Shown piece by piece: positions 25,973-37,869 of a stretch of DNA of 64,000 nucleotides; positions within the stretch are counted from its first letter, which is position 1, and each line of letters starts with the position of its first letter. Source of the DNA: Escherichia coli. GTDB lineage: Bacteria; Pseudomonadota; Gammaproteobacteria; Enterobacterales; Enterobacteriaceae. The stretch is from the NCBI RefSeq assembly GCF_030013595.1, contig NZ_CP122768.1, one strand, 5' to 3'. The position numbers and the translations under genes were made by a program. Under the pieces are notes generated by a model that saw only the letters and a list, made by a program, of their open reading frames with translations, did not search any database and had not been told where the DNA came from.

Positions 25973-28900
25973 TCAGGAGGCGAGCACCTCCACCAGCACA
26001 TCCGTTGCCCAGCTCTCTTCACTGTTGACCACATTCCCTTCCTGACAAGCTTGATCCATTTTGACTAACTGGAAAGAAACGTCATCGCGGAAGTCAAAGT
26101 AATGCCATTGCGATGCAAAGTTGATACGCCAGTAGCCCATCCCCTGATCGAAGCGGATCTTCAATACCTGACCATCCTCAAAAGTCACCGTCAGTTTACG
26201 ATGGTGAGGGATATCGCGCGGCGAGTCGAACACCGCCAGTTCTACCGGCCTGCCCAGCGCAGCTGCAAACCACTGATCAGCGAAATCCTGAAAATCCGCT
26301 ATGCTCATCCAGTCATGAAAAGGCCGGTTACCGGGGCGATCTTTATCTTTAAACAGCGTATCCAGCGTCACTTCAGCGCCATCGGTCAGCTTTGTTTTTA
26401 GCGGTCTCAGAATTGATCCCAACAACGCCAGCGCAACCGGGTTTTGCAGATAGCGATCGGTATAGTGAACGCCGGTAATTCGCGTATTTTTCATCAGTGA
26501 CTGCGCTTCTTCATGGTCGTTAAACAGCACGTCCCAGAAGCGTTGCCCAAACTGCGACAACGGTCCATTCAACTGTTTGTGGATCTGGATGTCTTTGACC
26601 CGCTCGACAGCGTTGGCGGCTTTAGCTGGCAGAATAAACTCGCTCAGTTCTACCGTTTTATAACCGAGGCTACGCACTACCAGTTCGTCATTCAGGTGCC
26701 ACTCCGGCCCCGGAATCGTTGCCTGCTGACTGCGAGAGGCCAGCGTCATCACGCGATCGGCAAAGGTAACCTGGGCAACAATCGGTAATTGCAGATCCTG
26801 TTCAACATGGCACAGTCGCACACCCAGCGCAGTAAATTGCGATAGTTCATGCAACAGGTCCGGATCATCCACTCCCGCAGGAATAACAAGATCGACCTCG
26901 ACGTTGTCTTTTAGCCGATAGCTCTGAATAGCCGCGCGGAACTGACGGGCGTATAAATCCCACTCATTGGGCGCGCCAGTCATCCACAGGGTGAGCTTTT
27001 CAGCGCCTTCGTTAATCGCCCGGCGAATCGTATCGCCAATAGCGCCAGGGCAGTAGCGGGCATCCGGCAGCGAGAATGTCTCTTCATCCGGTAAACCGAT
27101 GTAATACGTGAAGTCATCGCCAAGCCAGGCCAGCGCCGCTTTGCGATCCAGCAAATCATGATCGTGGCGAGTCTGGGAATCAAGCAGGCATTCACTGCAT
27201 GCAGTATCACAATGGCGGCAGCCTAACTGTTTCACCATTCCCTGCAAAATAGCTTCAATGTGTACCGGTGCGCTGGAGGCAAAACCTGCACCACCGCTGA
27301 TCACATCATAAAGCTGTACGGCTAATACCGATTGCCCATCCTCCAGTCTGACCGGACGTACAGAATAGCCGAGTTCTGCGGTGGAGATACCCAGAACGCC
27401 CGCCAGCGCCTGACGCAGAGCAACCGCCAGAGTCATGGCGACAATCCGCCCCTCTTCTGTGTTATCTGGCAGATACTCGCCATTTTGTGGTTTGCGCAGA
27501 ACCATTTCAAAGACATCGGTGCGCGCCAGTGCGCCCAGGGTGACTTTCTTCACGAGTGCCGTCGAACCTGGGCAAATCAGACGATGATTCTGGCTGTCGC
27601 GGTCCGCTTTACCCGGACGCGGTGGATAGTGAGCTTCCATACTTTTCGGCGCATCATTTTCATTCAGCATCGACTCCGCACGGCCACAGCTCAGACACAA
27701 TGCATAACCGTGTCCACCTTCCCCCAGACTTTGCTGGAAAACATGCCCATCAGCCCCAGAAGCCATATAACCCATTAGCGGGTTAGGCAACGGTACGGGC
27801 TCTGCTTTAACAAAGACCCACGCGGGGACAACCGGGACGAATTTCATGGTTTCAATATTGTTCGTTACCGGAGCATGTGCATCGGTAACAAACCCGGCAG
27901 GCTGCAGCACCTGACGGCGATTATCCAGGATGATTTTTTCGCCGCAGGCGCTGTTGGAGCAAAAGAGCATCCCGGAACTGCTCATCCCCTCTTCATAGCC
28001 AATGGTCCCGCATTTATGACAGCGCCAGGCGCAATCCAGACGCTGGGCTTCATTGGTATCAGCATTAATGTTGTGCCAGTGCAGTGAGACACCGGCAGAG
28101 CGGAAGACACGGCCATCAAGAATGATCTCTGCTCCCGGTGCATATTCACGAATGGCAACACCGAGGTTACGGGAAGGTAATCCTTTATAACGGGAGACGT
28201 TATCTTCACGGTCCTTTTTATCACGACTTTTCTGCGATTTTTCGCGGATATAATCTTCCATCGTGAAGTTATCAAACGTCACTACATCTGTCGGGAAACC
28301 GTATCCCGGCAGGAAGGTTCTGGCAGCCAGATCGCGCAGCAGATACTCGCCACAGTGCCGTTTCTTCTCCAGCTCTATGCGCTTACGATAAGGCGTTTGC
28401 GGCTGCGACTCACGCTCCTGGGTCACGAGATCGCGATAAACGGAGAGCCACCGCTGTTGCAGGAAGGTGATCGCGTTGATTGTTTTGTCCCGCAGATGTT
28501 CGGCTCTTGCGCCATGCAATGCCGTACCTTTCACCAGCCGTTCCAGCGCCGTGTCGATATCAAGAACAGAGCGTTCCAGCCAGACTTTGAAGCGTTCGCA
28601 TTTTGACTCCCCGTCATCTTCACCGAAAAACCAGAGGCTATCGAGGCTGGTTTTCTCTTTATCGGTTTCGCCAATAACGTTACATAAAAAGTCGGACAGT
28701 AATAATGCATTGACGTGACGTTGCACCAGTCGGGCGGAGTTCATCGCGACCATGGGTGCCGGGATCATGGTTTCAAACGGCCAGAGTGGGTTGGCAAAAA
28801 CCTGTTGGTCGTGTGGGTTACCCTTACATAGGGTGTAAGAGATCGCGCGCGATTCTTTACTACGCCCGGCTCGCCCGGCGCGCTGTAAATAGTTGGCCGG

Positions 28901-31900
28901 ATGTGGCGGTACGTTGTTCATTACCACCGCAGTAATGCCCCCGATATCAACCCCCATTTCCATGGTGGTGGAACAGTTGAGAACATTTAGTTGCCCATTC
29001 TTGAACATCTTTTCATAGCTTTGCAGACGTTCTGACGACTGCTGGGCAGAGTGCTCGGCAGTGCGATAGTAGAAACCGCCTTCCACGACACGATCGTTGA
29101 TGTCTGTCCAGACGTTTTCCGACCGCAATTGTGCGATCAGCGGATCATTGCTGACCCAGTCGCGTGCTTTTGCCAGACCCTCTGCGTAGTCTTCCTGTGA
29201 ACGATCCAGCTTCCAGATTTCCGGCATGGTGACTTTCTGCGCGACAAAAGTGTCATATTGCGCCTGGGTAAGATGCTCGAACGAAATATGGGTAGGCAGA
29301 TAAGGGGTTAAGCCTTTAAAAGCCGTATCCAGGATTTTATTGGTTACCGGGCAAATCCAGGCATCCGTGATTAAAGAAAAAGTCATATGCTCTTTCGGTA
29401 AATAAAAACGGTTGCCATCGGGTTTCAGTACTGCAAGCGGTCCGGTAAGTTGGGCCCATGCTTCTTTCAGCCATGTATTGATAATATCAATAGTCGCCGT
29501 ATTGACGGTTTTGAATCCAGCCCCCAGCATCAGTAACTTCGCTAAACGATGGGATACGTTGCCATTACGAATTTGAGGCCAGCGTCTGTTCTGATTATCT
29601 TCAGGATCTTTTGATTCCGGGTTACGGACGAATTTTGATGAAAAACGGCTACCAATCCAGTTTTTCAGCTCATCATCCAGCTGTGTGAAGTTGCTTTCGC
29701 GAACATAAAGATCCAACGTAACCTTGAGAAAATCGCGCCAGTCATCCAGCGTTAATCCTTTTTCCTGCCAGTGCAAGGGGCTCTTATGTATTTTCTCCAG
29801 CCCCTGGTAACCAACCTGAACCAGCCCCTGTGTTTCCAGGCTGTTAGTCCGTTTAGGGCGACGCATGAATTCCCGGAACAACAACATTTCCGAAAGCTTT
29901 AGTGGCCCGCCGTTTTTATTAAACACTTCAGGCTGCAAATAGTGGTTATATTTCAGTACCGGGCCACGGATATCGGCTTTATCTTTAAGCTCGTTAACCA
30001 TTTCTGTCCAGGTGCGGGATACCAGGGTAGTTGCTGCTTTTCCACCGGTTGCAGCCTGATAAGCCTGTTCAAGCTGTTCAGCCTGCGCTTGTGACAATTT
30101 CGCCTGGTCTGGCATTCCCCAGCTTCGATATTCTTCTGCCTGCTCACGGGCTTGCTTCGCCCTGGCCGCTAATTTTTCCAGATCGGCATTGGCATTCGGC
30201 GCCGTGGACGTTTGCGTCCGTTGATGCCAGCTCAGAATTTCGACTACGCTTCCGCGTAAGAGACTGCGTTCTGCTTCTTGCTGCATACGCACCGCCATTC
30301 GAGCTGTACCTTGTCGACTGTCCGTAAAGGTAATGAGTCGACGTCCTCGCCCTGGCAACGAATCTGGTCCGACGCCCTCTTTGCCTTCATCACTGGTAAA
30401 GTCCTGACAATACTCAAGAACGGTAGGCACGATGTTAGTAACGTAAAATGGCCCACCTAATAATGCACGCCGGAAGGGTTGTTTCCCACTCATGCCTCGG
30501 TAGCCACAGCCGCTGGCGCTACAAACCTTTTTATCATTAATAATCAGCGGAATGCTGTCATTATTAATAACGCCAATACGGCGCGTCTGACGGTCGAGGC
30601 GTTGTAGGGTATAGCCTGTCTCGCTGGTCTCTCCTGCGGCAATAATCAACGGAGGCAGGAAACCGTTCTCTTTTTCGACTTTTTCCTCTGTAGTGTCATG
30701 TTCAACAGGTACTTCATCCTGCAAGGAGAACTCATCGCCACCTTTATTTTCCCATTGGACAAGTTTGCCCTTTTTGTCCTGCGCCAGAAGATGAGGCTCA
30801 TTACAATCATTACAGAACGCCACTTCGTAGACAGGGCTTCCACAGTCGCAATTTTGTCGCTGGTTCACATACACATAGCCAAAGGGCCAGCCTTTTTCGA
30901 GCGGTGTACCGTGCTTTAATCTGCAATCTTTATCAACACAAGCCCATATTCCTTGGGTATTACGCTGGAAGATATGCGCCCTGACTTTAAGAAATGCGGG
31001 ATCCTTTGCATTAGGTTGAGTCCCTGAACAGACATCGATCCAACGCAGTACTTCCTGCTGGCTGTAATGCTGTTTTGTCAGCGCATTTAACCGCTGCGTC
31101 ATCTCATCCAGTTTCATTGGATTAGGTTGGCTAACCAACATTTCACGTATGTAACGCGCTTCGGGGGAGTGCGTAAGCGCATAAAAGCGCTCAGGACTTA
31201 TCCCTTTAATTTTATTATCATTTTTATCTTTTAGATCCAGATCAGGTATTTGCTCTATTTCGTCTAACGGAACAGAAACGTTTTTGGATGGTTCCAGTTC
31301 AGGAATCACCCGACTTCCGTCCAGAACATCGATGCGCTCCTGCGGGATACCGGATAATTCAGAGAGAAATTTTTTCAGCTGTTTTTCGGCGTCGCTGCCG
31401 GCAATGGTCGCAGAGGTCGCTACAAAGCGCACATCATCTGGCGTCACGCCAAACGCTGTCATCACACGACGCAGCTGGAGTGCCAGTTCAGCGGCCTGCG
31501 ACCCGACATAGGTATGCGCTTCATCCAGTACAATCCAGCGTAGTGATTTTTGTGCTTTGGATTGCTGGATAATCGGGGCGTCGACCTGGCGAACCATCAT
31601 ATATTCCAGCATCGTGCCGTTGGTCACCAGAATCGGGGCAGGCTCCAGACGCATCTTTTCACGGGATAAGACTTCATTTGGTCTATTATCCTGCACTGTT
31701 TTCATTTTTGCGTGGAGCTCTTCTGTATTTCCGTTATACAAGCAGTAGCGGATCCCAGTACCAAAACCACGCGTCCAGGCATCCAGACGCTCGCGCTGTG
31801 AATTAATCAAGGCGTTCAATGGATAGAGAAAAAGGGCTCGGACACCAACCAACGGATTGTTGCCATTTTCATGCAGTTCCCGGTAAAGATCTTCCAGCAC

Positions 31901-32314
31901 CGGAACCATAAAACATTCCGTTTTACCTGAACCCGTACCACTGGTTACCACCACTGAATGTTTCTTTTCCAGCAAAGCTTTCCAACTGGCTAACTGGTGT
32001 GTAAAAGGCTTCCAGTCAGCACCAAATCGGTACCGGCCATTACTCTGATTATCCAGTGAATCAACCACTGCTTTGCTCAACAATGCGTTGCCTTCCGTCA
32101 GACTGCGCATCGTGTGGTTTGACTCCTTCCAGCCAAACATTTGCTGGAATACCGGAGAAGCAAGGAATGAGCCCGGTTTCCCACAATCAGCCCCCATTTG
32201 TTGCGCGAGATGTTCACGCAGCTGCGGGTTGGTTACGCCCATGATACTGAGCGTTGCTTCAGTTGAACGAGACAACGATTGTTCAATAAGTGACGAAAAA
32301 TAGCGTGTAGTCAT
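25973..32314 (-). CDS. 2113-aa DEAD/DEAH-box helicase with Cys-rich zinc-ribbon-like modules (DruE-like defence helicase; inferred)
   Basis: Walker A SGTGSGKT (31919..31945), DEAH (31514..31525), SAT motif, helicase motif V MEMGVDIG and [10 protein letters not shown] (28862..28885), Cys clusters [45 protein letters not shown] before the ATG. Confidence 0.85.
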
Positions 32315-32326
32315 CCTTATTCCTTT

Positions 32327-35300
32327 TTATTTTTTAGCAACATAACGCAACAGGCTGCACTGAAAGATGGTCTTAAACCAGCGGGAATCGAAGTCCCTGA
32401 CTTGCCTCAGGAAAAATACGGCACCGGGTTTACGGTCAAATACAGCTTCAAAAGAAGTATTTCCGCTTGCCACAGCTGCAGCGAAGACGGGTAACCAGGC
32501 CACGGAATAGCGGTGATTTGCGTCAGGATTAATACCAATCACTGGATTTTTTTGTGACATCATCCATTTATACAGACGCTTGCAGCCATATTCAGGCCAG
32601 CGAGCTTCACTGTGCTCACGTAAAAGCTCCTGATACCACCCGTGGACACAAGATTCAGGAATAGACGGAGGGAGATATCCGTTACTTAACCATTTCTCAA
32701 TTTCATCGGCATATGTCGGGAACACGAGCCCCAGCCGTTGAAACATATTAGTAACCAGTAATTTCTGGGTTTCCTCCGGTGCACCTTTTTGGCTCAGGAA
32801 CAATTTGAAACGCTCAGATGCAGCTTTGATCTCAAAGATGGGGAAAAACTCCCATAGAATAGGGAACTCATTCTCAATACGACTCAGGTACTCTGCTGAC
32901 ATTTCAAATTTGAAGAGCGACATCGCCAATGCCTGCGGATGCTGCACTAGTGCACGCCATACTTCAAAGGTTGCCAGCGGTAAATAACCAAATTGATCGT
33001 ACAGGCTACGCATAAATTGCCAGCCGGAATGGGCAGGATCGTTAGCCATCTGTCCGAGAACCAGTGTGATGGTATTAACTTCTGCCTGTGGATTAAAAAG
33101 CTGGGTCGCTTTCTGCAATGAGCGGATGTTGCTTTCTTCTACCGGTAACGAAGATTCGCCACGAATGAAGCAGGGGCGAAAAGCCATCTCCTCACCCGGT
33201 TTAGGAACAACCAACCATGGCCCATTTTTGTTAACGATTGAGCTCAACTCATATTCACCGACAGGCACTCCCTCGCTCATTCTTGATGCTAAGGGGATGG
33301 ATTTCCTCTCGGGTTCACTTAACAGCATGATAACGGGGGAAGGAATCTGCCCAGCACGATGGTTCACTGACTGGCTGAGTAATAGTTCTTTTTCATAATC
33401 ATAGCGCAGGCTGTATTTATAGCGACGAATTTGCCAGGCCATGACCACACCTGCCCCCGTAATACGCATCTCAACAACCTGATCAATACCTGCCTCAAGT
33501 GAAATCAGGTTCTCAATATGTTCGCGCAGACTATAGAGATTCAATTCAACAGGACGATCGCTCTACGCCGTATAACACCATTCATGCCATGCCTGTAATC
33601 CACTAACGGAGCGCAAATACAACTGCAATGTATATTTTGTCGGCTCACCATTTCTGGAGAACAGAAACGCTCTGGAACCCAGCAGATCATGCAGCGTAAT
33701 GTTTTTATCCAGAGGACGTCCGTTTACATCAAGAGCGAGACAGCCTTTAGCGGGAAAAGGTAACTCAATGTCGATGGGGTCAGCCGCCAAATTAGGCAGA
33801 ACTTGTAATGTAATAAATGCCGGAGGTACCCCTTCCGCTTTAAGTTGTATCTCTGTTCGCCCCTCAGTACGCTTACGTGTAGCCTCCAATGTTTTATCTT
33901 TAAGTTTTGCTACACAAGGATGCTGTGTGGTGATTAAGATAGTGCCTTCATTTGCGTGCATTCCACCTTTTATCTCAATACTGAAATCAGCAGGCAAGAT
34001 ACCGATTTTGCGACGCAAGAGCGTTTCATTGTTACTATTACGGATAGAAAGATATTGAGCCCCCAGCATCTCTTGTATATGACATTGCTCAATTGAAATT
34101 CCGCTCAGGTAACGCGTTACATCAATGCTTTGAATATCCGGTAGTGTAGAAATGACTTTTGGTACACCAATAAATGTTTCATCTGGATGACAAACCCAGC
34201 TTGCACGCTTTCCATTTAGAGCAAACCTTCCGATGCTGATTTGTTCTCTTCCGGTGCGAATCCGATAAGTTTCATTTGCTGTAACTGTAACGTCCTGACA
34301 TCCCTTCACAGGTAGTGCTTTTAGTCCTAATACGTTTACTGCGCTCGATTGGCCATCAAAACCAGCAACATTGCTATTATCCCGAGGGAGTACAATCAGA
34401 ACATCGCTGCTTCGCACACTGCAAGAAGCCTGTCCCTGTAACAGCCATTGATCTGCATCAACGATGAAGGTTAACGGCACCTCACCAATGGCAATTTCAC
34501 TGTCATCAAGTTTAATGCTCCCAACAATCATCCCTCCAGCACGAGCCACTAATGACAAACCAGCCGATGGATTTTGCCTGACAAATCTCACTTCGCTTTT
34601 ACGTAATCGAACTGTTGCCTGTCTGTTTTCCAGGGAAGCATAGGCTGGCCCAAGGCCAGAGACTTCCTCACCATCTTCACAAATGGCAAGTTCAAAGCGC
34701 GTAGTTGACGGCTCGCTTGTTACAGGAAAGGAAACTTCGTCCGGAAGAGATACTATCACCCTAAGCTCATCTGGATGCTTTTCTGACCAATAGAATTGGC
34801 AACGCGTACTCTTATTTTTTTGTAGTCGAGGCTTAGCCTCTACAGAGGCTGCGCATAGCAGTCCATTCAAAAAATGCGTTCCTGTTTCATCATCTAACGG
34901 TATTGGAAACTCGCTTCGCCAGGTAGGGTGAACCTTCTCAAGCTGTTGTACTGGTTCTTTGTGATTTATTAGGTTGTGAGTAAGTACTAAGGAATTGAGG
35001 TTATCAGCCATATGACTGATAAGTTCTACAGAGGTATCTTCGCTAAAAACAGTTGGCAGCGCTGATTTTTCTATGACAGCTCTTGCCAGCGAAAGGGCAG
35101 AAAAACCTGACTGCTTTGCTTGCTCATATTGTCCAAGGATCCTGGAGAAAACAGCCAGAAAGCGACTGTCTGATTCTTTGAGTAGCCGGAAAGGTAAACC
35201 ACCTTCACTGAATAATGTTCCGAGAAAATTGCGTCGTTCAGATTCATAAAATCGAATTGGGCGCAGCCAGTAATCTTCCATCCCTTTCGGTACGATAGTA

Positions 35301-35617
35301 CCAAGCTCTGTGGCGGTGAATGAAATCCCTATTTTTTTATATATAGGGTCCCACGTCCATCCGCATTGCCGTTCATAATCCCTGCGGTACCACTCAGAGC
35401 AAAAAAGAACAAAACAGGCAGCAAAGTCCCTATTACATATATTAGATTGTGATTGACCGACCGCACGGAGTAGCTGCGTTAATTGGGTATATTCATCATT
35501 GGTTGCATGATATTCATAAAGAGGACGGCCATCCGGTTGTCTCAACCCTCTAAGATTCACAAAGTTACTTAGCCAGGAAGTACATTTTACCCATGAAATG
35601 TATTCTGATTGACCCAA
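32327..35617 (-). pseudogene. ~1096-aa protein of unknown function (DruH-like by position) interrupted by one in-frame TAG at 33563..33565
   Basis: ORFs 33563..35617 (684 aa) and 32327..33544 (405 aa) are in the same frame, separated only by TAG plus six sense codons; no Shine-Dalgarno precedes the downstream TTG; 12-nt gap with RBS to the helicase gene. Confidence 0.75.
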
Positions 35618-36115
35618 AGCAAGCTCCTTAGAGATAAAAGATACAAAAACAAAACCCTACAATACTTCTAATTTGAAAGAAAACTTTTCAAAATATCGTA
35701 TAATTAATCAGGCGGCAACAACTAATTTTTCAGGTCGGTACTATAAATTAATTTTAGATAAAAATGATATCAACTATCTATTAATCACAACTCATTTATC
35801 ACCTGGTTTTATAATTTCAAATGAAAATAAATCTCAAACAATCAAAAAGTATGCAGTAGCTAACATTTAACTTTCCAGGATATAAAACAATTAGAGAAAC
35901 TGCACAATAGCGAATAATGAGAGTTGTAAAGTCAGTCAAAAAACACAAGTAATCAGTGTGCGTTTTTTGACCGTTATCGACATGAGTTTAAAGAGTTTAG
36001 TGAAGAAGATATTCCTGTACACTCCATACCTATTGATGAATTGTCTCGGGAAAATTTTTATAACTTAATTTAAAAACATAAAAACGTTTTATTATATATA
36101 AATCTATAACCCCCA

Positions 36116-36280
36116 TCACTCCACATCCTCCCTGCGTAACCCGATATCCTTCAACCGCTCATCACTCATCTGCTGTAACACCCGCCGGGCCTGCATTTGC
36201 CGCCGCCAACGCCTCACTGCCTGCCAGAGTTGCACAAGTCCAATAAACGGTGCTTTAGCTTTGTTTTCGTGAAATTCCAT
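36116..36280 (-). CDS. yjiS: DUF1127 small protein
   Basis: 54-aa ORF below the track cutoff (MEFHENKAKAPFIGLVQLWQAVRRWRRQMQARRVLQQMSDERLKDIGLRREDVE), GAGGAGG Shine-Dalgarno, divergent from yjiR. Confidence 0.7.
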   Translation of the reverse strand: MEFHENKAKAPFIGLVQLWQAVRRWRRQMQARRVLQQMSDERLKDIGLRREDVE

Positions 36281-36456
36281 CTGCTGCCTCCTCATCTTTC
36301 AGAGGCTTCATCATCCGCCTTCTGGCAGTTCACAATACAGATGCAAATATTAGTTTTATTTAACATACAGACAGGTTAAAACAGCATCTGCATCCGGTTT
36401 TTTAGCCTCATCTGTACCGGTTTTTCTCTCTGTATGGTCCAAATAAGGAATACAGC

Positions 36457-37869
36457 ATGACGCGTTATCAACATCTGGCAACTCTGCTTGCCGAGCGGAT
36501 TGAGCAAGGGCTGTATCGTCACGGGGAGAAATTGCCGTCGGTGCGCAGCTTAAGTCAGGAGCACGGCGTCAGCATCAGCACCGTGCAGCAGGCGTATCAG
36601 ACGCTGGAGACGATGAAGCTCATCACTCCGCAGCCGCGTTCGGGGTATTTTGTCGCACAACGTAAAGCCCAGCCGCCAGTGCCGCCGATGACGCGTCCGG
36701 TGCAGCGCCCGGTGGAAATTACCCAGTGGGATCAGGTGCTGGATATGCTGGAGGCGCATAGCGACAGTTCCATTGTTCCGTTAAGCAAAAGCACGCCGGA
36801 TGTCGAAACGCCCAGCCTGAAACCGCTCTGGCGGGAGCTAAGCCGGGTAGTGCAGCATAATCTGCAAACCGTTCTCGGTTATGACTTGTTAGCCGGTCAG
36901 CGGGTATTGCGCGAGCAGATTGCCCGCCTGATGCTCGACAGCGGCTCGGTAGTCACCGCCGATGACATCATCATTACCAGCGGCTGCCATAACTCGATGT
37001 CGCTGGCGTTAATGGCGGTGTGTAAACCGGGCGATATTGTCGCGGTCGAATCACCCTGTTATTACGGTTCGATGCAGATGCTGCGCGGCATGGGCGTGAA
37101 AGTGATTGAAATCCCAACCGATCCAGAAACTGGCATCAGCGTTGAAGCGCTGGAACTGGCGCTGGAACAGTGGCCGATTAAAGGCATCATTCTGGTGCCA
37201 AACTGTAATAATCCGCTGGGATTTATTATGCCGGACGCGCGCAAACGGGCCGTTCTCTCTCTCGCTCAGCGTCATGATATTGTGATTTTTGAAGATGATG
37301 TCTATGGCGAACTGGCAACGGAGTATCCGCGCCCGCGGACCATTCATTCCTGGGATATCGACGGGCGAGTGCTGTTGTGCAGCTCGTTCAGTAAAAGTAT
37401 TGCACCTGGCCTGCGTGTGGGCTGGGTCGCGCCGGGACGTTATCACGATAAACTGATGCATATGAAATACGCCATCAGCAGCTTTAATGTACCGTCCACG
37501 CAAATGGCGGCGGCAACGTTTGTGCTGGAAGGTCACTATCATCGCCATATCCGGCGGATGCGGCAGACTTATCAGCGCAATTTGGCGCTTTATACCTGCT
37601 GGATACGGGAATATTTTCCCTGCGAAATCTGTATTACGCGCCCGAAAGGCGGATTTTTACTGTGGATAGAATTGCCTGAACAGGTCGATATGGTCTGCGT
37701 CGCGCGGCAGCTGTGCCGCATGAAAATCCAGGTGGCGGCAGGCTCGATTTTCTCAGCTTCCGGCAAATACCGTAATTGTCTGCGCATCAACTGCGCTTTG
37801 CCGCTCAGCGAAACCTATCGCGAAGCACTGAAGCAAATTGGCGAGGCAGTGTATCGGGCAATGGAATGA
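36457..37869 (+). CDS. yjiR: MocR-family regulator (GntR wHTH fused to aminotransferase-like domain)
   Basis: 470-aa ORF with N-terminal HTH and PLP-fold C-terminal domain. Confidence 0.85.
   Translation: MTRYQHLATLLAERIEQGLYRHGEKLPSVRSLSQEHGVSISTVQQAYQTLETMKLITPQPRSGYFVAQRKAQPPVPPMTRPVQRPVEITQWDQVLDMLEAHSDSSIVPLSKSTPDVETPSLKPLWRELSRVVQHNLQTVLGYDLLAGQRVLREQIARLMLDSGSVVTADDIIITSGCHNSMSLALMAVCKPGDIVAVESPCYYGSMQMLRGMGVKVIEIPTDPETGISVEALELALEQWPIKGIILVPNCNNPLGFIMPDARKRAVLSLAQRHDIVIFEDDVYGELATEYPRPRTIHSWDIDGRVLLCSSFSKSIAPGLRVGWVAPGRYHDKLMHMKYAISSFNVPSTQMAAATFVLEGHYHRHIRRMRQTYQRNLALYTCWIREYFPCEICITRPKGGFLLWIELPEQVDMVCVARQLCRMKIQVAAGSIFSASGKYRNCLRINCALPLSETYREALKQIGEAVYRAME

Follow-up and report, generated by a model that had tools for sequence, protein, structure and literature searches.

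A probable H-NS-silenced promoter region with a long untranslated leader upstream of the Druantia III druH-druE operon in Escherichia coli

The AT-rich segment between yjiS and druH (yjiT) in this E. coli strain is very probably the 5' regulatory region of the Druantia type III operon druH(yjiT)-druE, consisting of a promoter and a long untranslated leader and silenced several-fold by H-NS under aerobic conditions. The binding and expression evidence for the leader comes from E. coli K-12, in which yjiT and yjiV are truncated pseudogenes, and is extended to the present strain through orthology; we infer the choice of promoter, a direct action of H-NS, and the same behaviour in this strain.

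Results

Gene context, composition and coding potential of the leader

Coordinates are those of the window, by which we mean the whole 64-kb stretch of DNA that was analysed. The window contains the E. coli 'immigration control region'. From the yjiS stop codon to the TTG start of yjiT/druH the spacer measures exactly 498 bp (35618-36115, minus strand), and it is framed by the following genes and signals:

36457-37869, plus strand: yjiR (gene table)
36116-36280, minus strand: yjiS, a core gene of 54 aa (DUF1127), upstream of and co-directional with druH (RefSeq annotation of near-identical genomes)
36116-36118, minus strand: yjiS stop codon (sequence)
35618-36115, minus strand: AT-rich, probable leader/promoter region of the druHE (yjiT-druE) cassette (G+C content, K-12 orthology, cargo status)
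35624-35629, minus strand: Shine-Dalgarno sequence AAGGAG, 6 nt before the TTG start (sequence; kept in all lineages)
35617-35615, minus strand: druH TTG start codon (sequence; identical start in RefSeq)
32327-35617, minus strand: yjiT/druH, 3291 nt, amber-interrupted (PADLOC DruH3 for both halves)
25973-32314, minus strand: druE, a helicase-nuclease of 2113 aa (PADLOC DruE3, ORF table)

PADLOC assigned the two halves of druH to DruH3 (1107 and 974 bits) and the adjacent druE, which starts 12 nt past the druH stop, to DruE3 (2693 bits), an arrangement of neighbouring genes that identifies Druantia type III. The DruH reading frame is not intact in this strain, being interrupted by an amber codon at 33563-33565 (Leu685, TTG>TAG) relative to the closest genomes, in which the frame is intact. 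Since yjiS lies on the minus strand like druH and druE, it is the upstream co-directional neighbour of druH; the initial annotation, which had called the segment a divergent region toward yjiS, was mistaken on this point, as yjiS and druH are not arranged back to back and the true divergent spacer is the one between yjiS and yjiR (36281-36456).

The same annotation had described the segment as about 500 bp of strongly AT-rich DNA above druH, with A/T tracts and no convincing coding potential, and in these respects it was accurate. The G+C content of the leader is 28.1% (A+T 71.9%) vs 49.4% (A+T 50.6%) across the 64-kb window. Among all stretches of 498 bp in the window the minimum, 27.7%, starts at 35612, and only 0.085% of such stretches have a G+C content as low as that of the leader, every one of them overlapping it. 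The leader holds 20 runs of A or T, each of at least 4 bases, and no clear 10-11-bp AA/TT periodicity was found in it. A Pfam search with the seven leader ORFs (20-65 aa) returned nothing significant, the best E-values of 0.035 and 0.11 being far below the curated cut-offs. Furthermore, in K-12 or E. whittamii these ORFs are interrupted by stop codons, or else they change mostly non-synonymously: ORF43 carries a stop codon in K-12, ORF36 and ORF65 carry stop codons in E. whittamii, and the ORF65 product is only 81.5% identical between the window and K-12 at 96% DNA identity. Altogether, the leader showed neither a conserved ORF nor a match in Rfam nor a conserved RNA fold.

The leader is part of the Druantia cassette

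Among 5426 complete E. coli genomes, the spacer was found in 631 and the yjiS side of the query in 4160, and at every locus inspected the spacer adjoins yjiT or a yjiT remnant. In genomes with other cargo, BLAST matches begin at query positions 493-499, corresponding to 36110-36116 of the window and to 0-6 bp past the yjiS stop. Alignments with O157:H7, STEFF_1 and O166:H15 showed identity up to the yjiS stop plus at most a short C-run, followed by full divergence; the cargo that follows yjiS in these genomes is DUF262/GmrSD in O157:H7, symE in STEFF_1 and a penicillin G acylase gene in O166:H15. The boundary was placed as follows:

36110-36118, no strand: junction of the core genome (yjiS) with the variable cargo of the immigration control region (BLAST match starts, alignments)

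Because homology ends at the yjiS stop, the whole AT-rich segment is part of the Druantia cassette, and the leader is mobile-cassette DNA rather than E. coli core genome. The proposal that the region was horizontally acquired is thus supported by its accessory distribution, by the break at the yjiS stop and by the occurrence of leader plus druH in other genera. We rejected the leader as a mobile or repeated element in its own right: it is found in one copy per genome, two at most, and hence is not a repeat, it has no phage match, and its sole 'plasmid' match is a 4.9-Mb record that resembles a chromosome. Two insertion sequences were found in the leader: strain AMSCJX03 carries IS1 at ~35821, and a contig from a gut metagenome has an IS3-family element at ~35817. 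These insertions are accompanied by deletion or fragmentation of druH, not by activation.

To follow the leader beyond E. coli, species-representative genomes were scanned for the DruH N-terminus, which gave four loci, in E. whittamii, Citrobacter amalonaticus, Pseudenterobacter timonensis and Serratia sp. Ag1, with DruH protein identities of 77-95%; a DNA-pattern scan of metagenomes added two types, one Citrobacter-like (L020) and one unassigned (L015). In every lineage the 400-500 bp above the conserved TTG are AT-rich (24-39% G+C in 100-bp bins), and beyond them G+C rises to 45-60%. The leader of E. whittamii is 81% identical to that of E. coli, and those of the remaining lineages are 62-65% identical. 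The genomic surroundings differ from lineage to lineage: a phage-type integrase gene lies directly upstream in Serratia, genes for AlpA and a YagK/YfjJ-domain protein are found in Citrobacter, for Mrr-like and HNH nucleases in Pseudenterobacter, and for an HNH nuclease and a methyltransferase in L015.

Sequence conservation is concentrated in islands within the proximal ~230 bp, namely ATAAA (35812-35808), TGnTAT(C/T)AT (35772-35764), AAAAATTAGTnGTTG (35730-35716) and a GTTTT block, together with the start codon and its Shine-Dalgarno sequence. The distal leader, from about 35975 to 36115, is Escherichia-specific. One of the islands was recorded as a separate feature:

35716-35730, minus strand: conserved block AAAAATTAGTTGTTG, putatively part of the 5'UTR or a protein-binding site (nine invariant columns in six lineages)

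This block is polymorphic within E. coli and lies near the centre of a K-12 FNR ChIP-seq peak (~35727). Within E. coli, nucleotide diversity (pi) is 0.037 in the leader and 0.049 in its proximal half, vs 0.017 at third codon positions of yjiT; as the leader exceeds the yjiT third positions, most of it seems to be free of purifying selection. The least diverse stretches of the leader are 36018-36067, 35918-35967 and 35768-35817, and the promoter-like elements lie in the third of these.

RNA polymerase and H-NS bind the orthologous leader in K-12

K-12 MG1655 carries an orthologous spacer of 498 bp (U00096.3 4571916-4572413) that is 96.2% identical and has the same flanking genes. The 19 substitutions between the two leaders fall mostly in the proximal half, and both candidate promoters described below are identical. 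Shimada et al. (2014) reported a genomic-SELEX site for the RpoD holoenzyme in the K-12 yjiS>yjiT spacer, with the predicted promoter TTGAGA-18-TATAAA, and the same spacer is flagged there as containing an H-NS SELEX site (PMC3946193). With the sequence of the RpoD site intact in the present strain, these data favour the initial annotation's view of the segment as a promoter region that may carry the regulation of the defence operon.

In vivo H-NS data are available from Myers et al. (2013), whose coordinates refer to U00096.2; the offset to U00096.3 is 1977 bp and was verified with two FNR sites (PMC3688515). Under aerobic conditions an H-NS ChIP-chip region of ~10.6 kb (4569372-4579946, U00096.2; PMC3688515 Table S3) spans the leader (4569939-4570436) and takes in the yjiR 5' end, yjiS, the leader, yjiT, yjiV and mcrCB. 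The anaerobic H-NS regions (4569051-4569540, 4570576-4570998 and 4574494-4580063) flank the leader and omit it (PMC3688515).

Expression of yjiT responds to the loss of H-NS. In the K-12 Δhns RNA-seq data of Forrest et al. (2022), yjiT has a log2 fold change of 2.81 (~7-fold; P=1.3e-4, logCPM 7.3), and yjiS one of 1.19 (P=0.067, logCPM 0.9) (PMC8894471 Supplementary Data 2). The difference in abundance between yjiT (logCPM 7.3) and yjiS (0.9) argues for a promoter belonging to yjiT itself. Myers et al. tabulate one known yjiT transcription start site, for which they cite Wade et al. 2006 (PMC3688515). The derepression of yjiT in Δhns could be an indirect effect. The initial annotation had called the region typical of H-NS-silenced promoters and had proposed H-NS ChIP data from related strains as a check; in K-12 the SELEX site, the aerobic ChIP-chip coverage and the rise of yjiT in Δhns all speak for silencing, with binding that depends on the condition, the leader being covered in air and uncovered anaerobically.

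The supplement of Higashi 2016 does not mention the yjiT leader. A preprint claim that YiaU/LpsR controls yjiT was treated as unsupported, yjiT being absent from the passages available from the journal version.

FNR occupies the leader in K-12

A third protein, FNR, has been mapped to the leader in K-12. Under anaerobic growth, an FNR ChIP-seq/ChIP-chip peak at 4570327 with its summit at 4570275 (U00096.2) lies 110-162 bp above the start codon, which corresponds to about 35727-35779 of the window (PMC3688515). The peak is similar in wild type and Δhns/ΔstpA (0.54 vs 0.59), and the yjiT FNR sites are annotated as having no overlap with nucleoid-associated proteins (NAPs) (PMC3688515). In vivo occupancy in K-12 was not matched by an FNR-dependent change in expression: yjiT is among the FNR peaks for which no such change was seen (PMC3688515 Table S9), and it is absent from the tables of FNR-dependent and O2-dependent expression (PMC3688515). 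A predicted site was found at the start codon:

35609-35622, minus strand: FNR-like site TTGCTTTGGGTCAA across the druH start codon, two mismatches to TTGATnnnnATCAA (predicted, PMC3688515 Table S6)

This is the best match to the FNR consensus in the leader, and a site with three mismatches overlaps the TATCAT element; both are candidate sites only. A perfect FNR site inside yjiT was rejected as a conserved element, since it is E. coli-specific and missing even in E. whittamii. FNR is thus an additional, already catalogued occupant of the leader.

Promoter candidates, predicted curvature and RNA-level elements

The promoter-like and structural features of the leader are these:

35808-35837, minus strand: candidate sigma-70 promoter TTGAGA (35837-35832)-18-TATAAA (35813-35808) (prediction of Shimada et al. 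for K-12)
35764-35772, minus strand: extended -10-like element TGaTATCAT (PWM match with TG extension; cross-genus conservation)
35753-35774, no strand: strongest predicted intrinsic curvature, reaching 34 degrees at 35762 within the TATCAT element (wedge model)
35933-35973, minus strand: 15-bp hairpin with an A6/U6-containing stem and an 11-nt loop (MFE -17.6 kcal/mol, z=-4.55, 0/200 shuffles)

A PWM scan showed that promoter-like hexamer pairs are ~4-fold denser in the leader than in the window as a whole. On the druH strand, pairs with a spacing of 15-19 bp cluster at 35745-35837 and include many near-equivalent candidates; TTGAGA-18-TATAAA and TGaTATCAT were singled out because they are also phylogenetically conserved. 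A simple consensus scan was uninformative: it gave a single promoter-like site in the leader, whereas shuffled sequences gave more. TTGAGA-18-TATAAA is intact in the window with a PWM score of 7.9, its ATAAA core is nearly invariant in six lineages, and it would imply a transcription start near 35801, about 184 nt above the start codon. TGaTATCAT appears to be the best phylogenetically conserved promoter-like element in the leader: E. coli, Citrobacter amalonaticus, Pseudenterobacter and Serratia all retain TGnTAT(C/T)AT, of which E. whittamii, L015 and the Citrobacter-like L020 have weaker versions. The start implied by this element would lie near 35757, with a putative 5'UTR of about 140 nt. 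A scan of the leader with the sigma-32 consensus, motivated by the Wade 2006 citation, gave a best score of 10/14, which is attained by 52% of random 530-bp chunks, and is therefore uninformative.

The curvature prediction suggested in the initial annotation returned high values in the proximal half of the leader. The mean for the leader is in the top 0.44% of 498-bp stretches, its peak is 2.3 sd above composition-matched shuffles, and three more peaks above the 95th percentile lie at 35627-35737; these wedge-model values are approximate. The high-affinity H-NS motif of Lang, TCGATAAATT, was not enriched, the leader holding two matches with two mismatches and none better; we regard this nucleation motif as a supporting feature that is not obligatory.

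At the RNA level, the hairpin at 35933-35973 lies 143-183 nt past the yjiS stop and upstream of both candidate promoters, is found in Escherichia only, and may be a structure of the yjiS 3' end. It was rejected as a canonical terminator, as its U-run lies inside the stem, its core stem is A/U-rich and no terminator was called there; indeed, a search for intrinsic terminators after yjiS called none before druH. An Rfam search of 35000-37000 at E<=1 gave no match in the leader and only sub-threshold chance matches to archaeal snoRNAs at 36278-36319, which are in or just beyond the yjiS 5' end and outside the leader. Consensus folding of the putative 5'UTR across seven lineages gave -0.43 kcal/mol and zero covarying pairs.

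Discussion

Proposed mode of control

Taking the K-12 and comparative data together, we propose that sigma-70 RNA polymerase can initiate inside the leader, the candidates being TGnTATCAT (35772-35764) and TTGAGA-18-TATAAA (35837-35808), and that initiation at either would produce an untranslated leader of 140-185 nt. H-NS would bind the very AT-rich leader DNA, which is predicted to be curved. In air, the leader would lie within an H-NS domain of roughly 10 kb that stretches between the 5' end of yjiR and mcrB, with yjiS and yjiT also inside it, and that would reduce yjiT transcription about 7-fold. Anaerobically, FNR would be present on the leader and the H-NS signal gone there, with no measured change in yjiT RNA.

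A bolder extension of this proposal would make the leader an oxygen-responsive anti-silencing switch for phage defence. In the anaerobic gut, FNR at 35727-35779 would exclude H-NS from the druHE promoter, leaving Druantia III expressed or ready for expression; with oxygen present, the promoter would be covered by the H-NS domain; and the conserved islands TGnTATCAT and AAAAATTAGTnGTTG would be the working parts. We consider this unlikely, because the K-12 data show no FNR- or O2-dependent change in expression.

Alternative readings of the spacer

The position of yjiS, co-directional and directly upstream of druH, raises the question of whether the spacer is just a long intercistronic region, most druHE transcripts reading through from the yjiS promoter, with no relevant promoter in the leader. 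Such read-through would suit the lack of a predicted canonical intrinsic terminator between the two genes, as well as the SELEX promoter and the sigma-70 ChIP peak located in the yjiR/yjiS spacer. Yet the yjiS>yjiT spacer is itself bound by RpoD holoenzyme, K-12 yjiT stands ~6.5 log2 units above yjiS (~3 when length-corrected), and yjiT responds to Δhns whereas yjiS does not. Furthermore, the leader precedes druH where there is no yjiS, for example right after the Serratia integrase gene, and in E. coli a stable 15-bp hairpin separates the two genes. Transcription of druHE mainly from yjiS is therefore quite improbable in our judgement. A further reading would have the spacer inert, a piece of decayed cargo or a gene remnant that is AT-rich by mutational bias and to which RNA polymerase, H-NS and FNR bind non-productively, as to a 'sponge'. 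That K-12 yjiT is expressed and H-NS-responsive is not what such filler would lead one to expect, nor is the finding that islands in the proximal ~230 bp (TGnTATCAT, ATAAA, Shine-Dalgarno sequence and start) can be aligned across genera at 62-65% identity, and that every lineage keeps both the length of the leader and its AT-richness; no sign of a protein-coding remnant was seen. In its favour are a leader diversity within E. coli that exceeds synonymous-like sites, many equivalent hexamers on both strands, including a perfect TATAAT on the plus strand, an FNR peak that has no consequence for expression and a distal part of 140-260 bp that is Escherichia-specific. We regard inert filler as very improbable.

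Least credible of all, in our view barely worth entertaining, is that the leader encodes an RNA or peptide element (a riboswitch, an RNA thermometer, an sRNA or a small protein) that controls the operon. No leader match was obtained in Rfam at E<=1, the 5'UTR consensus fold of -0.43 kcal/mol comes with no covariation, and all ORFs are interrupted or unconstrained in relatives. In favour of such an element are a 5'UTR that, at 140-185 nt, would be long for E. coli, a 198-nt leader ORF that a few RefSeq genomes label 'hypothetical protein', and the significant hairpin at 35933-35973; this hairpin lies above both candidate promoters and is not kept outside Escherichia. An H-NS-silenced 5' regulatory region thus continues to be the reading that we prefer.

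Significance and comparison with known systems

As an H-NS-silenced regulatory region, the leader is an ordinary case of xenogeneic silencing, and its K-12 orthologue is already known from published tables of binding and expression. The new elements are the leader's connection with Druantia III, the finding that the cargo boundary falls at the yjiS stop, and a footprint that extends across genera. Druantia III has been much studied, with several mechanism papers in 2025-2026, some of which use inducible promoters and do not address native control. The native control of the system would reside in this leader, for which the K-12 datasets indicate dampening by H-NS and binding of FNR. Owing to the dampening, defence phenotypes recorded in aerobic laboratory culture or in hns-proficient strains may understate the capacity of the native operon; and as the leader moves with the cassette, the cassette would bring its own silencing-prone promoter wherever it lands. 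Beyond this, the leader is textbook xenogeneic silencing and opens no new question by itself.

The closest comparison is the K-12 yjiS-yjiT spacer. In K-12 yjiT is cut to 505 aa and yjiV is a pseudogene, whereas here druE is intact and druH is of full length save for one amber codon. The bgl operon is silenced by H-NS and relieved by IS insertion. Like bgl, druHE has an AT-rich, H-NS-bound upstream region that is curved (in the leader, by prediction) and in which IS elements land; unlike in bgl, the IS events in the leader go with deletion or fragmentation of druH, and the leader is not known to have a downstream silencer element or an activation phenotype.

A second parallel is Pcas of the E. 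coli K-12 type I-E CRISPR-Cas operon, which Pul et al. and Westra et al. are said to have reported in 2010 to be silenced by H-NS. Both systems are anti-phage operons with an AT-rich, H-NS-bound upstream region and increased transcription when hns is missing. Pcas has a dedicated anti-silencer, LeuO, and mapped promoters; we know of no anti-silencer for druHE. In contrast to Pcas, published in vivo ChIP places a single specific factor on the druHE leader, FNR, which has no effect on expression there, and yjiT keeps substantial expression in the wild type (logCPM 7.3). The Δhns table that lists yjiT also lists casA and casB (PMC8894471). Finally, FNR sites elsewhere are masked and unmasked by H-NS, for example at hlyE (Myers et al. 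2013, PMC3688515). The leader resembles these sites in that FNR and H-NS are found on the same AT-rich DNA in an oxygen-dependent and mutually exclusive manner (PMC3688515), and it differs from them in that typical masked sites are bound by FNR only in Δhns/ΔstpA, whereas the yjiT site is bound already in the wild type.

Probable cargo exchange, and insertion sequences, around the yjiS-druH junction

In the immigration control region, we compared the boundary between yjiS and the variable cargo among loci carrying Druantia III, DUF262/GmrSD, symE or penicillin G acylase. In every type examined, the cargo lay 0-6 bp from the yjiS stop codon (36110-36118 in the window; comparison loci L004, L005 and L006). 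That cargo of all these types abuts the yjiS stop implies that cassettes are exchanged via recombination in the conserved flank.

The AT-rich leader between yjiS and druH also contained two independent IS-associated breakpoints, at most 5 bp apart (~35817-35821). At the first, in E. coli AMSCJX03 (L037), an IS1 was present and everything from hsdS through the proximal leader was deleted; at the second, in a gut metagenome contig (L027), an IS3-family element, itself interrupted by a group II intron, adjoined a fragment comprising the leader and the 5' part of druH. E. coli HCP5S3_I2 (L038) carried a leader 100% identical to that of the window, a yjiS annotation 12 nt longer, and an IS3-family transposase inserted in the yjiS/yjiR spacer (L038 11172-12400), an insertion absent from this spacer in the window.

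A nonsense mutation in druH

33563-33565, minus strand: amber codon in yjiT/druH (codon 685, TTG>TAG, Leu685stop)

Leu685stop divided druH into two ORFs of 684 aa and 405 aa. The frame was unbroken in the closest genomes, which differed from the window druH at only 3 of 3291 nt. Barring a sequencing error at the amber codon, Druantia III of this strain is probably inactive.

Candidate regulatory elements in the leader and in yjiT

35933-35973: hairpin of 15 bp, A6/U6 in the stem; MFE -17.6 kcal/mol, z=-4.55
35699-35704, plus strand (opposite druH): perfect TATAAT hexamer
35810-35815, plus strand (opposite druH): perfect TATAAT hexamer
34448-34461: perfect FNR consensus site TTGATGCAGATCAA, inside yjiT/druH

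The hairpin, located between yjiS and the candidate druH promoters and conserved only within Escherichia, could be a yjiS 3'-end structure. The second hexamer overlaps the TATAAA -10 element predicted for the druH promoter; without H-NS, this layout could permit antisense or bidirectional initiation.

The FNR site lies 1157 nt into the gene, and a strong FNR ChIP-seq peak covers it in K-12 (PMC3688515 Table S6). It is probably fortuitous, since cross-lineage comparison found it to be E. coli-specific and missing in E. whittamii, Citrobacter, Serratia and others. A preprint (bioRxiv 10.1101/2021.12.22.473864) claims that YiaU (LpsR) binds at yjiT in ChIP-exo and regulates it; yjiT is not among the YiaU targets in the accessible portion of the journal version, where the other targets are given (Sci Rep PMC9068703).

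Diversity of the proximal leader

Within E. coli, nucleotide diversity (pi) in the proximal leader (35655-35760) was 0.049, compared to 0.017 at third codon positions of yjiT, a roughly threefold excess that was surprising for a regulatory region. Horizontally acquired DNA bound by H-NS has been reported to diversify faster, and the high pi of the proximal leader is reminiscent of these reports.
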